The notes under the pieces: model-generated
Database searches by the model: none
Told to the model about the DNA's origin: nothing
The model's input: only the letters and a program-made list of their open reading frames with translations
Program-made: the position numbers and the translations under genes
From: a virus
Lineage: Duplodnaviria; Caudoviricetes
Reading direction: 5' to 3' (one strand)
Virus record (IMG/VR): IMGVR_UViG_3300030098_003093
Location: 1 to 52,674 of that record
Length of the DNA: 52,674 nt
In this document: piece by piece, positions 4,645 to 45,447 of the stretch
Numbering within the stretch: the stretch's first letter is position 1
Layout: every line of letters begins with the position of its first letter

Positions 4645-4805
4645 ATTGGATAAATAGCTGGAAACAGGGTAACAAAAAAGAAAAGTACAATATTGAGTTT
4701 AGATTAGGTGTTTTTACTCTTTTAGAAATAAAATATTATGCATGTTCTGAGGGAAAACCTGTTAAATTTAGATTTATTTTATTAAATTTGGGATTTGAAC
4801 TATAA
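4641..4805 (+). CDS. Small hypothetical protein (54 aa)
   Basis: Read by hand: MNWINSWKQGNKKEKYNIEFRLG...; fills the gap in the operon. Confidence 0.6.
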   Translation: MNWINSWKQGNKKEKYNIEFRLGVFTLLEIKYYACSEGKPVKFRFILLNLGFEL

Positions 4806-4814
4806 GCATTTAAA

Positions 4815-5024
4815 ATGAAAATGACAAACGAACAATTACACGCAGAACTTCTTGAACTTAAACAGGACGTTAGAGAAATAAAGAAAAGACTGCTTGACCC
4901 TGATGACGGGGTGGTTGCTCGTATTAATATAAACACATCTTTCAGAAAGGCTGCTAGAATTTGGCTTGGAGTGTTTTTTACATCTATAATAGGTATAGTT
5001 ACAAAAATGTTATTTGAAAGGTAA
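4815..5024 (+). CDS. Coiled-coil plus C-terminal TM protein (lysis accessory?)
   Basis: Heptad-like N-terminus, hydrophobic C-terminus. Confidence 0.55.
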   Translation: MKMTNEQLHAELLELKQDVREIKKRLLDPDDGVVARININTSFRKAARIWLGVFFTSIIGIVTKMLFER

Positions 5025-5305
5025 TGGCAAAAGAATTAAACGAAGATACTAGTTTTAAAGTAAGTGTAAAAACACTTATTGGTATTGCATTTGGTATTGC
5101 AACGGTAGTGGGTATGTGGTTTGCTTTGCAAGCTGATATTGCAGAGGCAAAACTACTTCCTGAGCCACCAGCTCCTGATGTGACTAGAATGGAATTTGAC
5201 ATGAAAGACCAGATGATACGTAACACTATTATGACTACACAAAAAGATGTAGAAGAAATAAAAAAGTCTATGGAAAAGATAGAAGACAAACTATATAACA
5301 GATAA
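5024..5305 (+). CDS. TM plus coiled-coil protein (spanin-like?)
   Basis: N-terminal TM, Pro linker, coiled coil; TAATG coupling. Confidence 0.55.
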   Translation: MAKELNEDTSFKVSVKTLIGIAFGIATVVGMWFALQADIAEAKLLPEPPAPDVTRMEFDMKDQMIRNTIMTTQKDVEEIKKSMEKIEDKLYNR

Positions 5306-5667
5306 TGGAAAAATCCGAAATAGCTTGGCCACAATACGTTATTTATATATTAGTAATGTTAATGGTTTTTTTTGCAAGCACGGCTTTTGGTCAAATTACA
5401 GCAATGCACTTTAACGCTGAATGGAATAAAAATAATGGGGTTTCTTGGTTTATGGATTTGCAAGAATGTAAAACTAAAAGCATTATAGACATAGCAAAGC
5501 AACCCAAAATGTCAACAAAATATAAAATAGCAGTTATACCTACTATTATAATATTTAAAGATGATGAAGAGGTTGCTAGGTTTCAAGCTGATTTAAGTTT
5601 CAAGATGGTGGCAACAAAAGAAGAGGTTCAAGAAGAAATAGACAACATAATAATGAGTGATTTTTAG
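5305..5667 (+). CDS. Exported thioredoxin-fold protein lacking CxxC
   Basis: Signal peptide AFG-Q; KYKIAVIPTIIIFKDDEEVARF thioredoxin signature. Confidence 0.7.
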   Translation: MEKSEIAWPQYVIYILVMLMVFFASTAFGQITAMHFNAEWNKNNGVSWFMDLQECKTKSIIDIAKQPKMSTKYKIAVIPTIIIFKDDEEVARFQADLSFKMVATKEEVQEEIDNIIMSDF

Positions 5668-5899
5668 TATGTGGGACTTATTTAAAAATAAAAATGAAAT
5701 AAACGAAAAGAATATAATTGGCTTTATATCTTTTGGTATAATGGTTTTGTTTGCTTTTGCAGACCTTGCCACTAGCTTTGTTTATTCAGGCGATGATGCT
5801 TATTTGTTGATAAATGATACAATATATAATTCTTTTGTTTTTGTAACATTAGGATGTTTTGGAATCAGTACTTTTGAAAAAATAAAAACTAAAGAATGA
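5657..5899 (+). CDS. Small two-TM membrane protein
   Basis: Two hydrophobic helices; the real start may be the Met at about 5669. Confidence 0.6.
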   Translation: MIFSMWDLFKNKNEINEKNIIGFISFGIMVLFAFADLATSFVYSGDDAYLLINDTIYNSFVFVTLGCFGISTFEKIKTKE

Positions 5900-8800
5900 A
5901 AAATATTTTAATTTTATTATTAATACCTGTATTTGGCTTAGGGCAAGTTGTAAATACTTTTCCGTGGATACACGATTTTGAAAATGGCGTAGAACTAGAG
6001 CAAGATACAAATGATTTTGCTGATTGGTTGTTGCATCAGGGACCGACAAGTTCTTTTAACACAGGTCCGCAAGGAGACCACACTACCGGCAACGGTATAT
6101 ATTTTTATGTAGAATCTTCTAACCCTAATTTTCCAAATAAAGAATTCATATCTTACACACCAACATTTGACGTATCTGCAACACCTGGAAAAGTTTTGTC
6201 TTTTTGGTATCATATGCATGGTACTGCTATGGGGGATTTAGAAGTTGGAGTGTTAGATAGTAGTGGTTATACTGCTATAGACACTATATCTGGAAACCAA
6301 GGAAATATATGGAAGTTTGCTTACTACCCTATTCCTTCAACTAATGTGTTTAAAATAGCGTTTAAAGCTACTACTGGGTCTAGCTATACTAGTGATATAT
6401 GTATTGACGATTTATTAGTTGGAGACCCTTTTAATGTTGTTTTTGGATGTAATGATAGTGTTTCGTCTAATTACAACCCATTAGCAACTCATAGTGATGG
6501 TAGTTGTATTTATTATTATGGATGTATAGACCCTACTGCTACAAATTATAATCCTTGGGCTAATGTAGATAACGGTAGTTGCATTCAAGAGGTTGTTTGT
6601 AATCCAGGTCAATCTTTAATTGATGTGGCTATAAAACTAGATAATTGGCCAAGTGAAACCTCTTGGTTAATATATTCTGCTACAGATACATTTGCTTCTG
6701 TTCCAAGTGGAACTTACGATTATACACAAACAGGACAAACGGTGCATACACAAGTTTGTGTTCCTGTAGGAGACTCTATAGTGTTTACAATTAATGATAC
6801 ATATGGTGATGGTATTGGGGGTGGCTCTGTAGTTGGTAGTTGTTTGGTAACTAATATAGACTGTCAAGACACTTTATTTTTATTAAACCCGCCAAACTTT
6901 GGAACAACAGCGTCTTCAAGTCCCTACGTTTCTGCATCGTGCAATAATGATACTATAATATATGGTTGTACTACTCCTAGTTATTTAGAATATGACTCTC
7001 TTGCTACTGTAGACGATGGTAGTTGTTTAACGTTAGCTACTTATGGCTGTACTGATTTAGCTGCTTTTAATTACGACCCAACGGCAGATAGAATGTTATT
7101 AACCTCGCCTTGCACTTATGATTTAATATTATATGATGACGGTGGTGATTCATGGGGGGCTTGCTGGTTAGGAGTAGAGCAAGGAGATTCTTTATGGCAG
7201 TTTAAAATAACTCAAAATGGAGTTTATTCTGATACATTTGAGTTAGTTCTTAATTCTAATGATGAGGTTTATTTCTATTACTTTGAAATACCTACTCCTC
7301 AACAAAACCCTCAACAATTAGATATACAAACAATACAAAATTCTTTTAAACTAGAAAATAGTTACGGAGTTGTGCTGCATGAGGGAAACAATCCTTGGCC
7401 AGGGCCTAATGAAAATAAATTAAGAAACTATAAAAGCGCTTTAGATATTTACGAAGCTCAGCCTTTTTGCGGAACAGAGTGTATACTGGTTATTACTGGT
7501 TGTATGGATGCTATAGCTTATAATTACAATTCTTTAGCAAATACTAATGATACTTGTTATTATAGCCCTGGCTGTAATAATCCAGGTTATTTAGAATATT
7601 ATACTCAAGGATATATAGCAGATATTGATGATGGTAGTTGTAGCACTGTAGCGGTGTTTGGCTGCACAGACTCCACATCCTTTAATTATAGTGTTACAGC
7701 TAACGTAGATAACGGGGGTTGTGTTCCTGTTGTTTTAGGGTGTATGAATCCTTTAGCATTTAACTACAACCCTCAAGCTAATACAAACGATACATGTATA
7801 CCGGTTATATATGGTTGTATGAGCTCTATAGCTATAAATTACAATCCACTGGCTAATACAGATGATGGTTCTTGTATTGGTGTTGTGTATGGGTGTACTG
7901 ATTCAACCATGTTTAATTTTTCTCCTAGTGCAAATACAGATGACGGTAGTTGCGTGCCTTACATTTACGGTTGTATGGACGCTACTATGTTTAACTATAA
8001 CCCATTGGCCAATACAGATAATGGAAATTGCATTCCATTTATATACGGGTGTATGGACACGGCATCATTTAACTATGACCCATTGGCAAACACAGATAAC
8101 GGGACTTGCATACCTGTAATTTTAGGTTGTACAAACCCAATAGCTTTAAATTACTGTGACTCTTGTAATACAGATGATTTTAGCTGTATATTGCCTATAT
8201 ACGGGTGCACCGATAGCACAATGTTTAATTATAACCCTTTAGCTAATGTTGACAATAACTCTTGTATTCCTTTTATTTATGGTTGTACTGACCCTAGTAT
8301 GCTCAACTACAATCCGTCAGCTAATACAGAAGATTTTAGTTGCATTCCTTTTATTTACGGTTGTATGGATAGCACTGCTCTTAACTATGATTCGTTGGCT
8401 AATACTGACAATGGTTCGTGTATTGAAGCTATTGCGGGATGTAGAGACCCAAATGCGTTTAATTATAACCCGTTGGCAAACATAATAGCACACGATTCTT
8501 TAGGTTGCTTGTATGCAGCAGAACAATGTGTAAATGGGTCTGGAAACCCTTTCTTTTTAAATGACGAATGTTATGCTTGGGTAATAGAAGTAGATGAATA
8601 TTGTTGTTACAATGAGTGGGATAGTATATGTCAATTAACATATAATCATTGCTCAGATGGATGGACAGGAGAAATGCCTCCTGCAAGAAAAACAAAAAAA
8701 GAAATTTTATTATACCCTAACCCAACGAAAGGAATTGCTAACTTTAGCATACCTGTAGATGTAGAGGTTTATGACTTTACTGGTAAAAGAGTATTAGAAA

Positions 8801-8907
8801 TAAAAAACACAAACAGTGTAAATTTATCTAGTTATAGCAGGGGGGTGTACAATATTATCGCTATATTTGAAGACGAATTAATGCAATATAAACTTATAAA
8901 AGAATAA
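5896..8907 (+). CDS. Secreted MAM-domain, Cys-repeat protein with T9SS type A C-terminal sorting domain
   Basis: Signal peptide GLG-Q; MAM motifs (TGPQGDHTTGNG.Y.YVESS, LSFWYHMHG, DICIDD); about 17 GCxD..A.NY.P.AN.DDGSC repeats; YPNPT..VYDFTGK..GVY..KLIKE tail. Confidence 0.85.
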   Translation: MKNILILLLIPVFGLGQVVNTFPWIHDFENGVELEQDTNDFADWLLHQGPTSSFNTGPQGDHTTGNGIYFYVESSNPNFPNKEFISYTPTFDVSATPGKVLSFWYHMHGTAMGDLEVGVLDSSGYTAIDTISGNQGNIWKFAYYPIPSTNVFKIAFKATTGSSYTSDICIDDLLVGDPFNVVFGCNDSVSSNYNPLATHSDGSCIYYYGCIDPTATNYNPWANVDNGSCIQEVVCNPGQSLIDVAIKLDNWPSETSWLIYSATDTFASVPSGTYDYTQTGQTVHTQVCVPVGDSIVFTINDTYGDGIGGGSVVGSCLVTNIDCQDTLFLLNPPNFGTTASSSPYVSASCNNDTIIYGCTTPSYLEYDSLATVDDGSCLTLATYGCTDLAAFNYDPTADRMLLTSPCTYDLILYDDGGDSWGACWLGVEQGDSLWQFKITQNGVYSDTFELVLNSNDEVYFYYFEIPTPQQNPQQLDIQTIQNSFKLENSYGVVLHEGNNPWPGPNENKLRNYKSALDIYEAQPFCGTECILVITGCMDAIAYNYNSLANTNDTCYYSPGCNNPGYLEYYTQGYIADIDDGSCSTVAVFGCTDSTSFNYSVTANVDNGGCVPVVLGCMNPLAFNYNPQANTNDTCIPVIYGCMSSIAINYNPLANTDDGSCIGVVYGCTDSTMFNFSPSANTDDGSCVPYIYGCMDATMFNYNPLANTDNGNCIPFIYGCMDTASFNYDPLANTDNGTCIPVILGCTNPIALNYCDSCNTDDFSCILPIYGCTDSTMFNYNPLANVDNNSCIPFIYGCTDPSMLNYNPSANTEDFSCIPFIYGCMDSTALNYDSLANTDNGSCIEAIAGCRDPNAFNYNPLANIIAHDSLGCLYAAEQCVNGSGNPFFLNDECYAWVIEVDEYCCYNEWDSICQLTYNHCSDGWTGEMPPARKTKKEILLYPNPTKGIANFSIPVDVEVYDFTGKRVLEIKNTNSVNLSSYSRGVYNIIAIFEDELMQYKLIKE

Positions 8908-8909
8908 TT

Positions 8910-9296
8910 ATGTTAGGAGGATTATTTTCAGGAGGAGCGGCGGAGTTAGTAAAAGGTGTAGGTGGTGTTATAGACAATTTACACACATCTCAGGAAGAAA
9001 AACTAGCTGCAGAACAAAAAATAAAAGAGCTAATAGCTACGTATGAAGTAGAAATGGAAAAACAAATATCTGAAAGATGGAATGCAGATATGAAAAGCGA
9101 CTCTTGGCTTAGTAAAAACGTAAGGCCTATGGTATTAATATTTTTAGTTATTAGCACCGTATTAATGATATTTATAGACGCAGGAACAATAAGCTTTGAG
9201 GTTGAGTCTAAATGGACAGATTTATTACAGTTAGTATTAATAACTGTTATAGGTGCTTATTTTGGAGGAAGGTCTTTTGAAAAAGTTAAAAAATGA
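8910..9296 (+). CDS. Holin (3TM family-like)
   Basis: RWNADMKSDSWLSKNVRP, two TM segments, AYFGGRSFEK; next to the endolysin. Confidence 0.75.
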   Translation: MLGGLFSGGAAELVKGVGGVIDNLHTSQEEKLAAEQKIKELIATYEVEMEKQISERWNADMKSDSWLSKNVRPMVLIFLVISTVLMIFIDAGTISFEVESKWTDLLQLVLITVIGAYFGGRSFEKVKK

Positions 9297-9763
9297 AAAA
9301 AATAAGCGAACACGTTAGTTATAGAGAGGGTATTTACAGTAGAACGGCAGAAAGAAAAGATTTAGACAACACTCCAAATCCTGAACAGTTAAAGTGCATG
9401 ATGGAAATTGCCAGAGATGTATTTGAACCATTAAGAGAGTGGGTTGGCGGACCTATCAGGGTTAATAGTTTTTACAGGGGAGAAGAGTTAAATAAAGCTA
9501 TTGGAGGTTCTAGTAGGTCTCAACACTGTAAAGGTCAAGCTATGGACATAGATGACACTGGGTGTAAGAAAACGAATGCCGAAATGTATCATTATATAAA
9601 AGACAATTTAGATTACGACCAGTTAATATGGGAGTTTGGTGATGATAGTAATCCTAGTTGGGTTCATGTTAGTTATGTAACCCATAGGCCAAACAAAAAA
9701 ATATTAACAGTAGCGCTTAAAAAGAATGGTAAAACAGTTTACGAATATAGAGAACACAAATGA
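9293..9763 (+). CDS. Endolysin, peptidase M15A (Zn D-Ala-D-Ala peptidase fold)
   Basis: SFYR..LNKAIGG..SQHCKGQAMD and WVHVSY motifs. Confidence 0.88.
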   Translation: MKKISEHVSYREGIYSRTAERKDLDNTPNPEQLKCMMEIARDVFEPLREWVGGPIRVNSFYRGEELNKAIGGSSRSQHCKGQAMDIDDTGCKKTNAEMYHYIKDNLDYDQLIWEFGDDSNPSWVHVSYVTHRPNKKILTVALKKNGKTVYEYREHK

Positions 9764-10497
9764 TAGACCCAAAATCACATAGAGGCACTTTATTTAATGT
9801 TACCAGAGGATATGAATCTGCTATTACTAATAGTATAGCTGGAATTGGATTTGGAGGGTCTGCTATAATTAACACTGTAAGTGAACCTGAATTATTGTAT
9901 ATAGTTAGTTCTAGCGCTAACGATACTTCTGCTGGTACCGGTGCTCGTTCAGTATCTGGGACAATAGAAATAGTTGAAGAAGGGGGAGAGGTTCAGCAAT
10001 TTGATTTTGAAGTAGAGTTAGATGGAACCAGTCAGGTTCTTTTAGATGTTGACGGTACAGGTATATCTTCTTTTTCTGTGGTTACTACTGGTTCAGGAAA
10101 TACTAACGCCGGAGTAATATCTGTAAAAACTCAAGATACAGATACTGTTTTATACACAATACCTGCAAGCACAGGAACCTCTCAAAGTAGTTTGGTTACT
10201 ATGAATAGAAGAAGCAAGCTATATCAATTGAATGTTTATACAGATGCAACGACCACCTCTAATGTTCCAGAATTATATGAAATACTTTTAAGAAGCACAA
10301 ACGAAACGGATAGTGGTGATTTTTCTGCTACAACTTCTGGACGTATATTAGCCACTTTTTTTGCAACTCCAGGAAAGAATAGCTTTGAGCTTTATGATGT
10401 CGTAGAGTCTGGTACAAAGCTTTGGTGTACAGCTAAGAATGTAACTAATACTAACGCTAACGCTGTTTCTACAGAACTTATTACCTATGGAGTATAA
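9760..10497 (+). CDS. Putative virion structural protein
   Basis: Ser/Thr/Gly-rich beta protein with SSSANDTSAGTGARSV motif. Confidence 0.5.
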   Translation: MIDPKSHRGTLFNVTRGYESAITNSIAGIGFGGSAIINTVSEPELLYIVSSSANDTSAGTGARSVSGTIEIVEEGGEVQQFDFEVELDGTSQVLLDVDGTGISSFSVVTTGSGNTNAGVISVKTQDTDTVLYTIPASTGTSQSSLVTMNRRSKLYQLNVYTDATTTSNVPELYEILLRSTNETDSGDFSATTSGRILATFFATPGKNSFELYDVVESGTKLWCTAKNVTNTNANAVSTELITYGV

Positions 10498-10894
10498 ACC
10501 AAAATTAGAATGGCTAGTTGTTCATTCTACTGAAACAGAGTTTGGTTTAGATGTTTCTATATCAGAAATAAATTCAGACCACAAGGAAAGGTTTGGGATA
10601 ATAGGGTTTTCCGATATTATAGATTTTGAAGGAAATATAACTGGGACTTATAGTTTATATGACTATAGGAATTGCAAGCCTTATGATTGGGGTTTAAAAA
10701 ATTCAAGACACGTAGCATATATAGGAGGTTTGTCAGAAGATGGTTTTTATAAAGTAGACACCATGAGTCCTGAACAAAAAGAAACTTTAGACGTATATGT
10801 TATGTATATGAAAAGAAGACACCCCGGATTGAAAGTTATAAACTCTTCCGAACTTCAGAAACATACAAAAAAATCTATTTTGAAATCTGCGTAG
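10487..10894 (+). CDS. Degenerate N-acetylmuramoyl-L-alanine amidase (T7 lysozyme-like)
   Basis: LVVHSTET, HVAYIGG and DTMSPEQKETL present; C-terminal His/Cys Zn ligands missing. Confidence 0.6.
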   Translation: MEYKPKLEWLVVHSTETEFGLDVSISEINSDHKERFGIIGFSDIIDFEGNITGTYSLYDYRNCKPYDWGLKNSRHVAYIGGLSEDGFYKVDTMSPEQKETLDVYVMYMKRRHPGLKVINSSELQKHTKKSILKSA

Positions 10895-28899: not shown

Positions 28900-29166
28900 A
28901 TGAATCAACAAGGATTAATAAGAAAAATAATAGTTACAGCAGGAGATAGAGATATTACGTATGTAAAAGGTCAAACTATTGCTGGAGGAGCTATAAAAAT
29001 AGTAGACATAACATTTGATGGAATGTACGCAGAAGCTTTTGGAGAGGGTAGATATAATATCTACGTCATACCAAACAATGAAAAGTTCGTTAGATTATGG
29101 AAATCTATCCCTTCCAATAAGTGCGTACCAGAATATGAATTAGAACTAGAAGAACTTAAAAAATGA
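28900..29166 (+). CDS. Conserved hypothetical phage protein
   Basis: LIRKI...Y.KGQ..AGG...LWK pattern upstream of the GroES-like gene. Confidence 0.65.
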   Translation: MNQQGLIRKIIVTAGDRDITYVKGQTIAGGAIKIVDITFDGMYAEAFGEGRYNIYVIPNNEKFVRLWKSIPSNKCVPEYELELEELKK

Positions 29167-29744
29167 AAATAAACCCTTTAGGAGACTTTGTATATATTAA
29201 ACTAGAAAAAGAAGAAGAAAATACTCATACTTTAGATGATGGCAAAGTTATATGGCTAGACACTTCTTATGATAGATATGTTAACGCTAGACAATTTGGA
29301 ACCGTAGAGCTTGTTTCTATAAACATAAAAAAACGAGTAGAAGATAACTTAACTTTAAAAAAGGGAGATAAAGTATATTTCCATCACCATGTTATTGATG
29401 AAAGGATGGCTAGTGAATTTGGTGGAGATAATATATACAAAGCTCATTATGACCAAATATACTGCTACGTTAGAGATGGCAAAATAACAATGCTTCAAGA
29501 TTATGTTTTTGTGGAGCCTATAGAGTTAGAAGATAAAATAGGTAAAATACATATACAATCTAAAGAATCCACTAAAAGAGGTAAGGTTAAATTCTGTAAT
29601 CAATTCTCAAAAGATGATGGGTTTAAAAATGGAGATGAAATATTATTTATTAAAAACGCTAATTATGATATGATAATAGAAGGAGAGAGATTATTCAGAA
29701 TGAATAACAACGAAATATTAGCTAAGACAGAAGGGTTAGAATGA
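29163..29744 (+). CDS. Tandem-domain GroES-like co-chaperonin
   Basis: INPLGDFVYIK..G.V...LKKGDKVYF, then a second unit QDYVFVEP..GKV..GDEILF...EIL. Confidence 0.75.
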   Translation: MKINPLGDFVYIKLEKEEENTHTLDDGKVIWLDTSYDRYVNARQFGTVELVSINIKKRVEDNLTLKKGDKVYFHHHVIDERMASEFGGDNIYKAHYDQIYCYVRDGKITMLQDYVFVEPIELEDKIGKIHIQSKESTKRGKVKFCNQFSKDDGFKNGDEILFIKNANYDMIIEGERLFRMNNNEILAKTEGLE

Positions 29745-39849: not shown

Positions 39850-42800
39850 ATGGCAGTACTATCCGCTTACTCTTATCTTTTTGAAGTAAATCCAACAGAC
39901 CAAACTACAGGTCTTGGAAAAAACGGAGACCATAGCGCTAATTATGGGTCAGCTAATACAGGGGCAGCATTAACAACAGGAAATTGGTCTCCTCCTGCAG
40001 GTCATCAAGGGGGTACTTTTGCTGCAAATAATACTACTAACCCTCCTACTCCTGGGGGTGTTTCAGGTAGGGGTGGTAAAACAACAGTAAGGGTTACTAT
40101 CGCTATAGATAGAAGTAATTTTAAACCTGCACTTGGGCCTACTGGTTCTGGATTAGAAAGACCAATAGCTCCAAAAATGCTAGAAATACAAGATATTACT
40201 GGAGATGGTATTTATCCAAGCTTACAACATTTTCCTGGTGGGCAATATAATCATCCTTTAGGTTTGAATGCAGGTGGTGCCTCGTCAGGAGAGTACCGAG
40301 TTCTTGATTATGTTGATGACGGAAAATTTCATGAAGCTTTAACTGCTGGTTCTACAGGTCATAGTACTTATCAGGGAGGAGGGATACCTCCGACATCAGG
40401 AGAAAGAACATTTCAAGTAGAATTTACTAATGGTCATATAGAAACTATTACTGTTTTTGTTTTAGGAAGAAATGCCTTATACCATGAAGGGGAAGACATT
40501 ACAGATATTGCTATTGATACAAATCTTCCTAGTTTTTACGGTAATGGAATGACTCATACAGGAGCGGGAAATGTTAGTACATATTCTACACTAGATAGTG
40601 AAAGTGTATCTGTTGGTAAATTTTCTGGCGGTGAATCTGCAATACGAATGAATTATAACACCCTAAGCCCTCCTAGCAGCGGAACTCCAGCAGGATGGCC
40701 TGTTAATACAATTTTAAATAGCCCTTCAATGGGTAGTACTGATGCATATTGTGGGGGTTATGAACCTAGAATGCTGGTTGGTAGTCAATCATTAATAGGT
40801 CACCCTAATTTAAAATGGGGAACAACTATTGAGCCTGGAGGTTGTAGCGGTTCTTGTTGGGACGGAACTCCTAAGTCGTTAGTTATGGCCGCTAAGGTTG
40901 TGCAAGATGACGACGAAAGATTTGCTGGAATTACAGATTTTGTATTGCACGATATAGCATCCTTAAACTCAGGTTTTGGTTCATCAGGAAATAAAGTTTA
41001 TTCTGGGGTGCCTCATAACTGGGTTGGTTATGCTAAATTTAATAGTGGTTGGAGTCAACCATCATTAATAGCCGGTCAATATCCACCTTTAAATATGCTA
41101 GGGACTCCTACTGGTAGTAATTTTACTGCTAATTTAGATAATACATATATTGATTTTAATAATAATAGTTTAGATAAAAATTCTTACTTTAGAATACCTG
41201 CTAGCCCTATAAGTGTAAATAACTCTGCAGGCTCTTTAGATACAGAGATAAGAGAAATTTTTCTACATGAAGATTCATGGATTATAGGAACGGTTGGAGG
41301 TCTTTACGAACCAACATCTACTTATGATGCTGTTGTTACTGCAATGTCAGGTGTTAATACGGGAAGTAGTCCAGGAACAGAGAGTTTTAGCTCTGCAGTT
41401 TCCCACACTTATAAATATATTGAAGATGATGTGGATGACCCTTGTAGGAATTTTTCAGTTTCTAATGTTCCTTATACAACTACGGATGAAACTTCAGTTG
41501 GAGCTAACGATGGAACTTTTAGTATAAGTCTTCCGGCTTCAGGTGCGCCTTATAATATAACTATAACAGATAGTTCGGGGACTGTTGTAGGTACTAACAA
41601 TACAGCTTCTAATTTAGCTCCAGGAATGTACACTGTTACCGTTAGAGATAATTCAGATTGTGAAGACCAAATGGCGTTTATGATTTATGCTTCTACTTCT
41701 AGTCCCTGCAACATACAGGCTACAGCAAGCGCATCTATAAAATGTGCCGGGCTATCAACTTTAACTATAAATACTAATCAACCGACAAGTTCTTGGAAAA
41801 CAACTTGGAAAGACCCTTCAGGGGTAGTAATTCCTGTGTTAGGAAACATTTATCAACCACAAGTAAGTGTAAATGCTTCTACAAATCCTGGTACATATAC
41901 GGTTGAAATAGAAGATACTAATTTTGCTTCAGGGGTATGTGTTTTACTTCTTTCAATACCAAATGTTTCTGCTACTGCAATAAACTTAAGCGCAACAGCA
42001 ACAGATGTTACTGTTTTTGGTGGTTCTGATGGAACAGCTACTGCTTTAACTTCTGGAGGGACACCTCCTTTTAATTACTCTTGGAGTAATGGTGCTACTA
42101 CTCAACTTATATCTAATTTAACTGCAGGAACTTATAGCGTAACTGTTACAGATAGTTCTAATTGTACGACTACAGCTAGTGTTACAGTTGGGCAACCTGT
42201 AACCAAGCCAGTTAACGCAAAATGTTTAGATGTTTGCTTAGATTTAGATAATGGAGTGTTTGATTTTGTTGATAATAATGATTATTCTCCAGCAGGCCCA
42301 CAATTACCTTATAGAATTGCTTTAACAATAGAGCATTCAAACGGAACAATAGTTCACCCTGGTTCTTTAGGAAATCCTGATATATTTTCGGATTCAAATT
42401 TAAGCAATGTAAGAACTTACAATTACAATATAAAATACGGTCAAAACAATAAAATACAAATACCATCTAGTAGTGGAAATTATATTTCTGATGTTTATAA
42501 AGTAACAACAGAATGGAATTTTTCAGGAACTTCAGTTCCGGAAGTAACAAAAGTATGCTATATTAACGCTCAAGGATTAGCGATGTTTGATAATATTTCT
42601 ATTGATACATCTTTAACATATAGTTGTACTGGAGATATTATAAGTAAAGACAATACTGTTTATGGCATGAGTGGTATTCCTTTTACTATATCTAGAACTC
42701 ATAAATTATTTGGGCCTTCTACAAGTGGATTGCCAACTCCAGCTTTTACAACTGGAACAAATATGATAACTCATTCTTTATACGAAGGAACTTGGGATAA

Positions 42801-45447
42801 TTTTATAGAAACAGAAATAAAATGGACAATCCCTTCTAGTCCTGCTTTAGGAATAACATATGAGCCTTTGTGTGTTACAAAGACATTATACGGAACTGCT
42901 TCTGTTGACGTAGAATGTTTTGTTGACCCTTGTGTAGTTCAATATTACACAAAAAAAATAAGAAATAAATATGATAAAGCTGTTTGCGATTGCGACACTT
43001 TAAAAATAAAAAAATATAGAGCTCAACTACAAAGAATTGTTGAGTTATTAAATGTATTCATAATAGGAGAACAATCAGAGTGTGCAAATGATTATTCAGA
43101 ATTATGGACTATTCTTGGAATTAGCTACCAAGACCATTTAACCGACCCTAACTGTTGCTCATCTATTAAAGACGCAACACCTAATCCTAAATTAATAGGA
43201 GACGGGTGTATAGGAGATGTAGGGGATTGTGGAGATGATGGAGGAGGAGGTGGGAAACCACCGCCACCACCACCACCGCCGCCAAATAATTGCGCCTGCG
43301 ACTCTACTACTCCTTATTGGGATTTTACACTCCAAGCAGCTGGAGGTTATGCCGTTGGAGATTTAGTGTGGCACACAACACAGATTGGAGGAAATGATGT
43401 TCCTGTTAATACTTGTAAAGCGTGTTTTGAAGTGGGGACTATTCCTACGGGAGGTTGGGACCCAACTTTACCTATCAACGAATTGCCAAATGAAGATAAA
43501 CAACAATATTGGACTTTTGTTACTTGTAATGTTTCTAGTCAAAACAAAGATTGTTTTGGATGTACAGATAAAAATTCTATTGGTTACAATCCAAATGCTG
43601 TGTATGATGATGGTTCTTGTATTCCTTGCGTATATGGATGTCCAGACAGTACAGCATTAAACTATAATTCAGCTGCTACTTGTGACGATGGTTCATGTAT
43701 AGCTGTTGTTTATGGTTGTACAGACCCACTAGCTTTGAATTATTACCCTGGAGCAAATGTTGATGACGGTTCTTGTTGTTATATTTCAGGCTGTACAGAT
43801 GGAGCCGCTACAAATTATTCTCCTACTGCTTGTTATGATGATGGCTCATGTATATATCCAGGAGCATGTACTTCTACTAATTGGGTTAATATTTATTCTT
43901 CTCCAGTTTTACTTCACGATGGTATACCAAAATTTTCAAACTTAGTTTTAGATAATGGAAATAATATTTGGGCTTGGGTGGCTTCAAATAGATTTCCGTA
44001 TGGCCCTATGAATCATCCGATTAATCGTAGTTTGGCTATAGGTCCTGCTGCAGACGTTACATCTCCTACTGATTATTGGGCTCAATCGGCTGGAACTTGG
44101 AATATAAGCCCTGCGCTTAGTTCACTTCCAAACTTTCCTGTTAGTTCTCAAGAAATAGTTACTACAGGAGATGGAAGGTTTTGGTTTGTAAATGGGGAAG
44201 GAGTATCTCAAACAAATGCTTTTGCGGGAATGTCCAGCGCTTCAGCAACTAACGCCGGGGGTGTATTTAGCAGTAAATATAATATTACTTCTCATGCTCT
44301 TCCTGCTTTAGTGAAAAATAAAGAAATGAGATATGTTACTATGGATGTTGATGGTGCTTCTACTCCACTTTTACATATATTATTTGGCTCACGAGATTCT
44401 GCTGATAGCGTTACTCACGGAAGTGGAGGCTCAGAAAGTGGTGCTTATAAAACTTACTATTATACAATGGATACTTCTAATGGTAGCTTTACCTTAGTTG
44501 ATACATTAAATGAATCAAATACAGACTGTCATTTATATTGGAGAAATGAAAACTCTCATGATTTAACTAGTCAATATAAAAACGAAAAAGGAGAAATTAA
44601 TGCTAAATTAAAATGTGATTCTTCTAATAAACCATGGGTTGTTTCTAATGGTAAAATAATGAAATACGATAGTGGGTGGAAAAACATATCTGGAAGTGCT
44701 GCTACAGCAAATGCGGGAGACTTTCATACTCATGCTACTACTGGGGCTAACACTGTTTTCACTGAAGATGCATCAGGTTCAACAAGAAATCCTGGGGGAA
44801 TGTATGGAACAAATCATTGGGAGTATAGAGAAATAACACTAGACTTTTTAATTGACGGTTCTAATAAATACATTTTAACTTATAGTACTAGAAAATTAGA
44901 CAATGCTTCACAACAGGGAAGTTCTCCAGCTGGAGCTGTAAAAGCTACTGATAGAAAAGCAGAAATTATATTACATCATCACAACGGAAGTAGTTGGGCT
45001 CATCACGTTGTACCTACTGCCACTGATTCTAGCGGAGGCTTATTATATGAGCATCCTTTTGATAATTATTTAGATTATCCACGAACAGGAGATACTACAA
45101 CAGCAAAACCTACTATAGCTGTAAGGTCAGGGATTCCTTATGTTTTTGTGTCAACCAATGTTCATGATGGAAGTGACTACGGAGAAACTAGTAAAACTAC
45201 AGTGTATAAATATGATAGCGGATGGACAAAAATAGGAGATGATATTGTAATAGGAGCGCATGGTTGGGGAGCAGATGATACTAATTATAATTATAGTAGA
45301 TTGCTTCAGCCTTTAACGCAATTATTATATAATTCTACTACTGATGAAATTTATGCTATGTCTAACACAGTACCTTCAAATGTAACTGATTTACCTACTG
45401 GGGACTGGACAGGATTTGATGTCATAATTAAAAAAATATGTTTTTAA
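39850..45447 (+). CDS. Large mosaic virion fibre/adhesin protein with SprB and Cys-rich repeats
   Basis: SprB repeat (GGSDGTAT..SGGTPPFNYSWSNGATT..ISNLTAGTYSVTVTD..C), poly-Pro tract, four GCTD repeats, no signal peptide. Confidence 0.7.
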   Translation: MAVLSAYSYLFEVNPTDQTTGLGKNGDHSANYGSANTGAALTTGNWSPPAGHQGGTFAANNTTNPPTPGGVSGRGGKTTVRVTIAIDRSNFKPALGPTGSGLERPIAPKMLEIQDITGDGIYPSLQHFPGGQYNHPLGLNAGGASSGEYRVLDYVDDGKFHEALTAGSTGHSTYQGGGIPPTSGERTFQVEFTNGHIETITVFVLGRNALYHEGEDITDIAIDTNLPSFYGNGMTHTGAGNVSTYSTLDSESVSVGKFSGGESAIRMNYNTLSPPSSGTPAGWPVNTILNSPSMGSTDAYCGGYEPRMLVGSQSLIGHPNLKWGTTIEPGGCSGSCWDGTPKSLVMAAKVVQDDDERFAGITDFVLHDIASLNSGFGSSGNKVYSGVPHNWVGYAKFNSGWSQPSLIAGQYPPLNMLGTPTGSNFTANLDNTYIDFNNNSLDKNSYFRIPASPISVNNSAGSLDTEIREIFLHEDSWIIGTVGGLYEPTSTYDAVVTAMSGVNTGSSPGTESFSSAVSHTYKYIEDDVDDPCRNFSVSNVPYTTTDETSVGANDGTFSISLPASGAPYNITITDSSGTVVGTNNTASNLAPGMYTVTVRDNSDCEDQMAFMIYASTSSPCNIQATASASIKCAGLSTLTINTNQPTSSWKTTWKDPSGVVIPVLGNIYQPQVSVNASTNPGTYTVEIEDTNFASGVCVLLLSIPNVSATAINLSATATDVTVFGGSDGTATALTSGGTPPFNYSWSNGATTQLISNLTAGTYSVTVTDSSNCTTTASVTVGQPVTKPVNAKCLDVCLDLDNGVFDFVDNNDYSPAGPQLPYRIALTIEHSNGTIVHPGSLGNPDIFSDSNLSNVRTYNYNIKYGQNNKIQIPSSSGNYISDVYKVTTEWNFSGTSVPEVTKVCYINAQGLAMFDNISIDTSLTYSCTGDIISKDNTVYGMSGIPFTISRTHKLFGPSTSGLPTPAFTTGTNMITHSLYEGTWDNFIETEIKWTIPSSPALGITYEPLCVTKTLYGTASVDVECFVDPCVVQYYTKKIRNKYDKAVCDCDTLKIKKYRAQLQRIVELLNVFIIGEQSECANDYSELWTILGISYQDHLTDPNCCSSIKDATPNPKLIGDGCIGDVGDCGDDGGGGGKPPPPPPPPPNNCACDSTTPYWDFTLQAAGGYAVGDLVWHTTQIGGNDVPVNTCKACFEVGTIPTGGWDPTLPINELPNEDKQQYWTFVTCNVSSQNKDCFGCTDKNSIGYNPNAVYDDGSCIPCVYGCPDSTALNYNSAATCDDGSCIAVVYGCTDPLALNYYPGANVDDGSCCYISGCTDGAATNYSPTACYDDGSCIYPGACTSTNWVNIYSSPVLLHDGIPKFSNLVLDNGNNIWAWVASNRFPYGPMNHPINRSLAIGPAADVTSPTDYWAQSAGTWNISPALSSLPNFPVSSQEIVTTGDGRFWFVNGEGVSQTNAFAGMSSASATNAGGVFSSKYNITSHALPALVKNKEMRYVTMDVDGASTPLLHILFGSRDSADSVTHGSGGSESGAYKTYYYTMDTSNGSFTLVDTLNESNTDCHLYWRNENSHDLTSQYKNEKGEINAKLKCDSSNKPWVVSNGKIMKYDSGWKNISGSAATANAGDFHTHATTGANTVFTEDASGSTRNPGGMYGTNHWEYREITLDFLIDGSNKYILTYSTRKLDNASQQGSSPAGAVKATDRKAEIILHHHNGSSWAHHVVPTATDSSGGLLYEHPFDNYLDYPRTGDTTTAKPTIAVRSGIPYVFVSTNVHDGSDYGETSKTTVYKYDSGWTKIGDDIVIGAHGWGADDTNYNYSRLLQPLTQLLYNSTTDEIYAMSNTVPSNVTDLPTGDWTGFDVIIKKICF

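Follow-up and report, generated by a model that had tools for sequence, protein, structure and literature searches.

A putative secreted protein is encoded directly upstream of the phage lysis genes

The window analysed here (52,674 nucleotides of IMG/VR virus record IMGVR_UViG_3300030098_003093) is a phage contig carrying terminase, portal, capsid-like protein, holin, endolysin and primase/helicase genes. On its plus strand, where all of the features described below also lie, an open reading frame at 5896..8907 starts with ATG and encodes 1003 residues with no internal stop codon, in agreement with the initial annotation, which had called the gene intact. We refer to its product as the cargo protein. 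The gene had also been placed directly before the holin and endolysin genes, and this arrangement was borne out: the holin gene (8910..9296; phrog_3427, E = 8.6e-32) starts 2 bases past the cargo stop codon, and its end is overlapped by the gene for a peptidase M15 endolysin (9293..9763; phrog_894, E = 1e-26; PF08291, 51.4 bits versus a cut-off of 23.2). The same string of genes ends with an amidase-like lysis protein (10487..10894; phrog_822, E = 3e-12).

Directly upstream are three small membrane or periplasmic open reading frames (5024..5899) that overlap one another and the cargo gene. They encode a 93-residue protein with an N-terminal transmembrane segment and a helical part, a 120-residue protein with a signal peptide and a thioredoxin-like fold that lacks CxxC (its thioredoxin-like matches fall below the cut-off), and an 80-residue protein with two hydrophobic stretches. 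Most related loci retain the first two, either ahead of the cargo gene or close to it. Since neighbouring genes from 5024 to 10894 either overlap or have gaps of no more than 2 bases, the cargo gene is probably co-transcribed with the lysis genes, and a terminator scan revealed no terminator-like site between the cargo and holin genes. Across the window the sigma-70 scan (38 sites versus 46 in shuffles) and the terminator scan (7 versus 4.3) are not informative for a Bacteroidota phage. As none of the public runs listed with this sequence is an RNA run, the timing of expression is judged entirely from gene spacing.

Modular anatomy of the cargo protein

The cargo protein, which contains 51 cysteines, begins with MK, a hydrophobic run and G-L-G followed by Gln17. 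We read this start by eye as a Sec signal peptide (residues 1–16; 5896..5943) with a predicted signal peptidase I cut between G-L-G and Q17. As the +1 residue is not Cys and there is no lipobox, the protein is not a lipoprotein. In Bacteroidota the signal peptidase I cut is often followed by Gln (the 'Q-rule'), and Q17 is conserved in at least 90% of 36 family members; the signal followed by Gln had been noted in the initial annotation.

Residues 28–174 (5977..6417) are assigned as a MAM domain, also noted there, by profile and by a predicted jelly-roll-type fold. Pfam PF00629 matched this region at 75.3 bits versus a cut-off of 26.4 (E = 6.4e-21), its PDB sequence matches are MAM domains (best E = 4.3e-18), and Foldseek matched its model to 8yt7 and 5l73 (TMt 0.57–0.61), with moderate model confidence (pLDDT 51–83). 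The MAM domain is followed by two Cys-bracketed repeats (residues 183–229; 6442..6582), placed by regular expression, and by a beta-sandwich domain (residues 230–349; 6583..6942) with a sub-model pLDDT of about 88–94 and a conserved D-N-W-P-x-E-T-S-W motif, which is also found after MAM in bacterial MAM-CTD proteases. Two further repeats, the second of them degenerate (residues 356–406; 6961..7113), precede another beta-sandwich domain (residues 407–529; 7114..7482; pLDDT mostly 85–92). An array of 13 repeats with the core CxDxxxxNYxPxANxDxGSC (residues 534–871; 7495..8508) then leads to a Cys-rich helical module (residues 872–935; 8509..8700; model helices at 891–920) and to a type A T9SS C-terminal sorting domain (CTD; residues 936–1003 and the stop codon; 8701..8907) assigned from PF18962, TIGR04183 and a fold match.

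The two middle domains could not be given a family name. Foldseek returned a best E of 7.9e-4 at a TM of 0.15 and VIA a Z of at most 6.2, which indicates only a common beta-sandwich likeness: the first domain matches Ca-dependent CBM and C2/PLAT-like sandwiches only weakly in fold (Z no higher than 6.2), while the best match of the second, also weak, is the C-terminal domain of 1olp_A (Z = 6.2). Together with the MAM domain, they bring the protein to three beta-sandwich binding-type modules and 17 single-disulfide mini-repeats.

The initial annotation had proposed about 17 repeats. This total stood, with a change in membership: of the 17 regular-expression matches, 16 are true repeats and one (878–904) is false and lies in the following domain, while a degenerate repeat at 385–406 was added by eye. 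The layout is 2 + 2 + 13, the long array has a period of mostly 26 residues, and no Pfam or NCBIfam family matches the repeat, which is common to phage proteins and host-type proteins. The dN/dS of the array is 0.03–0.11. AlphaFold gave it a pLDDT of 25–48 and did not resolve its fold, and the full-length model is poor (mean pLDDT 56). Since the array could not be modelled, the term 'stalk' is a guess. Apparent joints within the array in Logan contigs were not accepted as variants; the contigs are short there, and several joint sides have fewer than 30 letters.

The helical module contains the most invariant columns in the family (C892, W895, D900, C903, W908, C912 and C919), and among 22 genome-contig proteins examined its motif was found only in five phage-type contigs. 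ESM Atlas look-alikes of residues 530–935 all score below 0.9 and are leads only; the clusters listed with recorded taxa are all viral, and Por_Secre_tail is present in 76% of the members of one of them. Scans of Pfam, NCBIfam and PHROGs found no catalytic domain in the cargo protein, and searching PHROGs with the whole protein matched no family at E ≤ 0.001. The protein looks like a set of binding modules on a stalk and is adhesin-like in build.

The same repeat occurs elsewhere in the window. Four copies (43555..43875), with 54% identity to cargo residues 614–773, lie in P0002, an 1865-residue structural-module protein encoded at 39850–45447 that also has an SprB repeat (PF13573, 32.8 bits versus a cut-off of 28). 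This shared repeat leaves a possible link between the cargo protein and the virion open.

The C terminus resembles a type A T9SS sorting domain

The initial annotation had assigned a T9SS CTD by eye and named two profiles with which to check it. Both scored above their cut-offs: Por_Secre_tail (PF18962) matched residues 939–989 at 35.1 bits versus 27, and TIGR04183 matched residues 939–1002 of 1003 at 31.1 bits versus 23. The score in a six-frame scan was 36.8 bits. A PDB sequence search matched the CTD to 8glk_D (E = 1.7e-4), the CTD of the substrate NucA in a T9SS complex. The CTD model (pLDDT 75–88 over residues 940–1003), which has four long strands, was also matched by Foldseek to 8glk_D over 75 columns with a TMt of 0.80, an rmsd of 2.2 Å and 27% identity. 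In an NCBIfam scan at E ≤ 1, the type C model NF033708 reached only 11.5 bits versus a cut-off of 40, and no type B model was among the matches. The CTD is under purifying selection in phage genomes, with dN/dS of 0.12–0.33 in the seven pairs with dS below 1 (11 pairs computed). The signal peptide, the +1 Gln and a terminal CTD that scores over its curated cut-offs together make up a full type A T9SS cargo anatomy, which sequence, profile and model evidence supports.

The cargo family is widespread and alternates between two tails

In 43 other viral contigs (IMG/VR loci) and in five phage-type contigs binned into MAGs, homologues of the cargo gene have the same gene surroundings, and a protein search returned at least 3072 relatives, many of them from ocean surveys. 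None was found in GenBank phage records, either by a DNA search with 25 kb or by tblastn against 50,697 records at E ≤ 1e-5, and no CTD gene was found in five searched phages from among the nearest cultured relatives, which infect Flavobacterium, Cellulophaga and Maribacter.

A tail of about 35 residues, which lacks the YPNP and G-x-Y strands, stands in place of the CTD in 18 of the 36 complete family members. Six such tails gave no NCBIfam match at E ≤ 10, and none of the short tails matches a custom CTD profile at E ≤ 1e-3. On a quick gene tree the tail type switches at least five times, and the closest relative of the window (L029) has the short tail. Since half of these members lack a recognisable CTD, T9SS routing does not appear to be a fixed property of the family; either the family function can do without the T9SS, or the short tail is a signal that our profiles do not recognise. 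The N-terminal head is also exchanged, with MAM present in 22 of 36 members, and the protein varies least in its C-terminal module.

The TerL and capsid proteins of the window are nearest to those of phages of Flavobacterium, Cellulophaga, Maribacter and Tenacibaculum. SprA is encoded in all five marine Flavobacteriales MAGs that contain proteins built of the Cys repeat, and each of these MAGs has 54–80 CTD matches. The nearest cultured phages and these MAGs suggest a Flavobacteriia-type bacterium with a T9SS as the candidate host class.

Discussion

We consider it reasonably likely that the cargo protein is a non-enzymatic, modular, disulfide-rich phage protein that is made late, alongside holin and endolysin, and exported by the own machinery of an infected Flavobacteriia-type host. 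The infected cell would probably export this viral surface protein just before bursting, and our best reading is that of a late-made T9SS cargo that remodels the surface of the infected cell. On this proposal, Sec would carry the protein to the periplasm, where it would fold and its cysteines would be oxidised. The T9SS translocon would then recognise the CTD, which would be cut off, leaving the protein either attached to the outside of the cell or set free. Its conserved C-terminal end would lie nearest the cell, and the repeat array would separate it from the exchangeable N-terminal head. Of all the steps in the scheme, the purpose is the least secure. Most likely it would be to alter what the surface of the dying cell binds at burst, either by masking T9SS-dependent phage receptors or competing for them, which would spare progeny from being lost on debris, or by making the infected cell stick to particles or to its neighbours. 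Mutations in T9SS and gliding genes lead to phage resistance in Flavobacterium (PMC9804748). Points against our reading are that late synthesis of the cargo protein fits classical superinfection exclusion poorly, that half of the complete family members have the short tail in place of the CTD, and that the repeat is also present in a structural-module protein.

The presence of a real CTD in a protein encoded in the lysis gene string could also suggest that the phage jams the T9SS, which the initial annotation had put forward beside display of an adhesin, such that bulk cargo made late occupies the translocon and shuttle and either stops the export of host receptor-adhesins or weakens the outer membrane. 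The T9SS and its cargo have been implicated as flavophage receptors (PMC9804748), and the SprB repeat in P0002 points tentatively to an involvement of this phage with the gliding-adhesin system. However, three conserved binding-type domains are not needed for a jam, the whole passenger is under purifying selection (dN/dS 0.03–0.25 in most regions), and a recognisable CTD is missing from half of the family. As an export block minutes before lysis would also leave receptors already at the surface in place, we regard jamming as unlikely. A role on the particle, in which the cargo protein is a decoration or adhesion fibre acquired from the envelope at lysis or assembled otherwise, draws on its place at the end of the structural gene string, the tail-fibre-like genes that lie between the cargo and lysis genes in relatives, the repeat held in common with P0002 and a head domain that is swapped as in receptor-binding proteins. 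Tailed particles are assembled in the cytoplasm, though, and the cleavable signal peptide and +1 Gln that the family conserves, like the CTD under selection, send the protein away from there; since PHROGs gave no match either, structural or otherwise, we judge a virion fibre to be quite unlikely.

The cargo protein might instead handle the outer membrane within the lysis programme, as it is encoded adjacent to or near holin and endolysin genes in the window and in several relatives, one of the small upstream membrane proteins is shaped like an inner-membrane spanin, and no spanin was recognised among the ORFs scanned. Against this, it has neither a membrane anchor nor a lipobox Cys, no hydrophobic segment beyond the signal peptide and no match to a PHROG lysis family; its adhesin-like build of 1003 residues is unlike any known spanin or disruptin, and in many relatives other genes, amounting to 1–4 kb, lie between it and the lysis genes. 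We therefore hold envelope disruption to be very unlikely. The initial annotation had named misassembled host DNA as one of the findings that would undo its reading. A captured host segment or chimeric assembly with no phage role would account for the Bacteroidota counterparts of the MAM domain, beta-sandwich, CTD and Cys repeat, yet full homologues occupy the same neighbourhood in the 43 IMG/VR loci and five MAG-binned phage-type contigs, contigs from three runs of two studies bridge the CTD-holin junction while others span the start of the gene, purifying selection is seen along its length, and the best cellular (non-phage) match has 25–37% identity over parts only. As far as sequence data can do so, these observations refute this explanation, to which we give almost no credence.

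A wider scheme can be built on surface remodelling by a late T9SS cargo, although we think it a long shot. An entire lineage of marine Flavobacteriales phages, and an abundant one, would use the host T9SS in its exit programme; the cargo protein, produced along with holin and endolysin and helped by the conserved, thioredoxin-like, redox-dead upstream protein, would be planted on or in the outer membrane to mask T9SS-dependent receptors or help breach the membrane, and the 35-residue tail in half of the family would act as a new kind of minimal export signal, suited to different hosts. In Bacteroidota, T9SS cargo is as a rule encoded on the chromosome. Phages that bring a cargo of their own would be a case of viruses changing the outer surface of marine Flavobacteriia, a group of major importance in breaking down algal organic matter. 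Since the family is common, it offers a tractable test case in which the comparison of CTD and short tail bears on the minimal T9SS signal. Receptor masking is of interest since it is through T9SS and gliding genes that flavobacteria become resistant to phages (PMC9804748).

The initial annotation knew of no characterised example. This holds for experiments, as our literature searches yielded no experimental test of the function of a phage-encoded T9SS cargo and no papers on MAM domains in flavobacterial phages, but not for predictions: phage T9SS cargo has been predicted from metagenomes before, in two papers, and ours is not the first example. In the 'Cryophage' of Bellas 2020 (PMC7468147), phage genes that end in a type A T9SS sorting domain vary between variants, and the authors propose T9SS hijack. 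The passengers described there, from a glacier-hole phage, are endoglucanase, GH39 and PA14, whereas ours is non-enzymatic and consists of MAM and Cys repeats; in addition, our gene is a conserved resident of a marine lineage near lysis genes, with a CTD that alternates with a short tail. In contigs of gut Bacteroidota phages, de Jonge 2019 (PMC6949934) describes ORFs that carry T9SS sorting domains and lie close to BACON-repeat ORFs; one of them is fused to carbohydrate-binding-type repeats, and that study draws no conclusion on function. These differ from the cargo gene in repeat type (BACON), in habitat and in lying upstream of head genes, and the sections considered report no link to lysis genes.

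Among cellular proteins, the MAM-CTD proteases of Bacteroidota (Aquimarina, Saprospiraceae and Crocinitomicaceae; L056, L059, L070, L081 and L127) have in common with the cargo protein a signal peptide, MAM, the motif-bearing beta-sandwich and a type A CTD, with 28–40% identity over cargo residues 2–307; their tails have the order fn3, MAM, beta-sandwich, CTD. They differ in that each carries a reprolysin, subtilase or M43 catalytic domain and in that the Cys-repeat array is absent. Where bacterial MAM-CTD proteins were examined, MAM and the beta-sandwich module form a non-catalytic appendage, whereas the cargo protein has MAM at its N terminus and nothing catalytic. Proteins of 1540–1617 residues from uncultured marine Flavobacteriales MAGs (L061, L068, L077, L099, L100, L102, L116 and L128) carry the same repeat in 12–19 copies by regular expression, the beta-sandwich motif and a signal-peptide-like start, but end in a short, dockerin-like, Cys-flanked region rather than a CTD and lack the Cys-rich helical module, and one class of them has M43.

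Like SprB and RemA of Flavobacterium johnsoniae, the cargo protein would be a large, repetitive surface adhesin of T9SS type. The CTD of SprB is of type B, and the gliding motor propels the protein along the cell. The SprB repeat is absent from the cargo protein and present in P0002. Both SprB and RemA are reported as presumed phage receptors (PMC9804748). As a functional model for the cargo protein we favour, by analogy and in spite of a lack of homology, Llp of phage T5. Llp is a small early lipoprotein that is routed by the Lol pathway and masks the receptor, such that progeny and superinfecting phages are not wasted.

An intact ORF with export signals at both ends

The initial annotation had described a complete type IX secretion system (T9SS) cargo protein, and this description was accurate. 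The intact ORF (5896-8907, +) specifies a protein of 1003 residues. As claimed, a Sec-type signal followed by glutamine can be recognised by eye (residues 1-16: MK, a hydrophobic run and G-L-G; then Gln17), and this Gln is at least 90% conserved among the 36 cargo family members. A MAM domain spans residues 28-174 (Pfam, 75.3 bits; cut-off 26.4), and the C-terminal sorting domain (CTD) scores above cut-off with both Pfam Por_Secre_tail (residues 939-989; 35.1 bits, cut-off 27) and NCBIfam TIGR04183 (residues 939-1002; 31.1 bits, cut-off 23). A six-frame scan of the window placed the CTD at 8710-8901 with 36.8 bits, and no second CTD gene was found in the window or in any related locus. The predicted number of about 17 Cys-bracketed repeats agrees with our count of 17, arranged 2 + 2 + 13 with a period of 26 aa in the long array; 16 were matched by a regular expression and a degenerate copy at residues 385-406 was added by eye. 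A seventeenth match of the expression, at residues 878-904, was rejected as a false repeat. The protein contains 51 cysteines, and no catalytic domain was detected by any domain or profile scan run on it.

The gene resides in a phage genome beside the lysis genes

The window, a linear IMG/VR virus record with a CheckV completeness of 79%, encodes a large terminase (TerL), a portal, a capsid-like virion protein and further virion proteins, with a primase/helicase, exonucleases and a replication initiator on the minus strand. Plus-strand ORFs are cut by both contig ends (1-1284 and 51690-52673), and that at the 3' end matches the beginning of a virion-protein family 1474 positions long; one possibility is that a permuted genome, almost complete, was opened inside a single large structural gene. 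A GroES-like co-chaperonin is encoded at 29163-29744 (+; phrog_13932, E 7.1e-10). The structural module includes an 1865-aa protein (39850-45447, +) in which an SprB repeat (32.8 bits against a cut-off of 28) is accompanied by a poly-proline linker, four cargo-type Cys repeats (54% identity) and an internal CTD-like Ig stretch that is sub-threshold (21.4 bits; cut-off 23); it matched no PHROG family.

The cargo gene directly precedes the holin (8910-9296) and M15 endolysin (9293-9763), as had been noted, and an amidase follows at 10487-10894. From 5024 to 10894 each gene overlaps the next or is separated from it by at most 2 bases, a spacing that makes co-transcription of the cargo and lysis genes most likely, as the last part of the late gene string. 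Upstream, a 93-aa ORF (5024-5305, +) begins with a membrane helix, which a proline-rich linker joins to a helical C-terminal part, an overall shape like that of an inner-membrane spanin; it is kept in nearly all related loci and had no family match. Like the cargo, a 120-aa ORF (5305-5667, +) has a signal peptide ending before Gln, and its C-terminal half is thioredoxin-like, with matches far under cut-off (Pfam E 3.3e-4; TIGR01068 E 3.4e-6). It lacks cysteine at the CxxC position, is matched by tblastn in 42 of the 43 full-homologue loci, mostly upstream of the 51-Cys cargo, and could be a redox-dead periplasmic helper.

Cargo homologues were found in 48 IMG/VR loci; in 43 the gene is full or contig-truncated, and in 5 the repeat stretches alone match. 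The usual order is 375-aa ORF, (nuclease), 93-aa ORF, thioredoxin-like ORF, (80-aa ORF), cargo, with endolysin and/or holin 0-4 kb downstream in most loci where the contig extends there, and with holin directly upstream in two. In some relatives (L003, 9010-11594; L022, 9371-13048) small 'MATLT...' ORFs and a tail-fibre-like ORF, 468-811 aa in such relatives, lie between the cargo and lysis genes; this variable module is absent from the corresponding place in the window.

The possibility of host DNA or a chimeric assembly, raised initially as a point to check, is excluded to the extent that sequence data allow. The stretch 4800-9800 is present in marine metagenome runs from 4 studies, the CTD-holin-endolysin junction is spanned by contigs in 3 runs from 2 studies (one run possibly the window's own source), other metagenome contigs span the start of the gene, and the neighbourhood is conserved. 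The best 'bacterial' matches (L051-L055, in MAGs labelled Flavobacteriales, Parvibaculum, Rickettsiales, Sphingobacteriales and Nitrosopelagicus) all show the same phage gene neighbourhood and are probably mis-binned phage contigs. The cargo is a phage gene and no assembly artefact.

The sorting tail is under selection and repeatedly exchanged

Pfam detects MAM in 22 of the 36 complete members of the family; the remaining members have a different head. A full type A CTD is present in 18, including that of the window; Pfam detects it in 14 of the 36 at E<=0.01, and our own CTD profile in all 18 CTD-bearing members. The other 18 (related loci within L006-L038) end in a conserved short tail of ~35 residues, which retains a D-L-L-G-R-like strand and a basic end without the YPNP and G-x-Y strands. 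Even at E<=10, NCBIfam gave no match to any of six short tails scanned (120 C-terminal residues each). A quick maximum-likelihood tree of core residues 230-930 requires 6 changes of tail type, at least 5 of them forced by well-supported branches, and the nearest relative of the window cargo (L029, 84% identical) has a short tail. Invariance across the family is highest in columns of a Cys-rich helical module that immediately precedes the tail. Where synonymous divergence was unsaturated (7 of 11 pairs), dN/dS was 0.12-0.33 for the CTD versus 0.03-0.11 for the Cys-repeat array; the CTD values indicate a domain maintained by selection while resident in phage genomes.

Predicted structure, module origins and candidate host

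The full-length AlphaFold model was poor (mean pLDDT 56), with the repeat array unresolved (pLDDT 25-48), the CTD (pLDDT 75-88) and two middle domains usable, and the MAM domain moderately so. The modelled CTD superimposes on 8glk_D, the NucA substrate CTD within a T9SS complex (TMt 0.80, rmsd 2.2 A, 27% identity), and the modelled MAM on solved MAM domains with TMt ~0.6. Modelled separately, residues 228-530 form two beta-sandwiches (mean pLDDT 84) whose best matches, a Ca-dependent carbohydrate-binding module and C2/PLAT-type domains, are weak (Z <= 6.2) and may reflect a common arrangement alone.

The phage head shares 28-40% identity with the non-catalytic appendage of proteases found, within the genome collection searched, in Aquimarina, Saprospiraceae, Crocinitomicaceae and Flammeovirgaceae, which combine a catalytic domain, fn3, MAM, a motif-bearing beta-sandwich and a CTD. 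The same Cys repeat occurs in 1540-1617-aa proteins of uncultured marine Flavobacteriales MAGs (L061, L068, L077, L099, L100, L102, L116, L128; 12-19 regex matches, 87-92 Cys), one class of which carries an M43 peptidase domain; these have a short Cys-flanked dockerin-like end, whereas the cargo has a CTD. All five searched MAGs encoding such proteins contain SprA and 54-80 TIGR04183 matches. The window's TerL (36-41% identity) and capsid-like protein (27-32%) are nearest to those of phages of Flavobacterium sp., Cellulophaga, Maribacter and Tenacibaculum. Together, these module proteins, MAGs and phage affinities make a T9SS-bearing marine Flavobacteriia host likely. TIGR04183 had no match at E<=0.01 across the whole genomes of the five closest GenBank relatives.

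A proposed role at burst and its alternatives

Evidence from sequence, profiles or models supports the two terminal export signals, the binding-type modules, the absence of any enzyme domain, the selection and the lysis-string position. The cargo would be exported by Sec, fold oxidatively in the periplasm and be recognised through its CTD by the host T9SS; the CTD would then be removed and the protein attached to or released at the surface, a chemistry involving PorU and anionic LPS in Porphyromonas. The conserved C-terminal module would lie nearest the cell and the exchangeable head at the distal end of the array. Since synthesis would be late, and the T9SS and its adhesins have been implicated as flavophage receptors (PMC9804748), we favour, as a guess, a role at burst, in which the cargo masks or competes for receptors and spares progeny loss on debris, or else makes the dying cell stick to particles or to nearby cells.

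A pure T9SS jam, also proposed initially, is possible but leaves selection across the whole passenger unexplained. Two observations hint at a virion fibre: the Cys repeat common to the cargo and the SprB-repeat-bearing 1865-aa structural-module protein, and the tail-fibre-like genes adjoining the cargo in relatives. The conserved signal peptide of the cargo speaks against this reading. Its genomic position would also fit a lysis accessory, yet the protein has no anchor. The cargo observation is confirmed, and the initial interpretation, an adhesin displayed through the host T9SS or a jam of that system, is partly supported. Half of the family has no recognisable CTD. This short-tailed half is the main unexplained fact about the family, and makes us less confident that the family's function depends on T9SS export.

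Relation to known systems

The literature searched, the main texts of openly accessible papers, contained neither an experimental test of any phage T9SS cargo nor an account of the MAM/Cys-repeat family. UniProt viral entries in BFVD already label uncultured-marine-virus relatives 'Putative peptidase' or 'Secretion system C-terminal sorting domain-containing protein'; among the matches listed in the protein search, one is labelled 'MAM domain-containing protein' and, by our own count, 32 of 120 carry precomputed PF18962. T9SS sorting-domain ORFs have been noted in gut phage contigs (De Jonge et al. 2019, PMC6949934), and phage T9SS cargo has already been predicted from metagenomes (Bellas et al. 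2020, PMC7468147). The present gene adds another case, distinguished by how abundant it is in marine viromes, a constant position next to the lysis genes, an unnamed Cys repeat in common with host-type proteins and a repeatedly swapped sorting tail.
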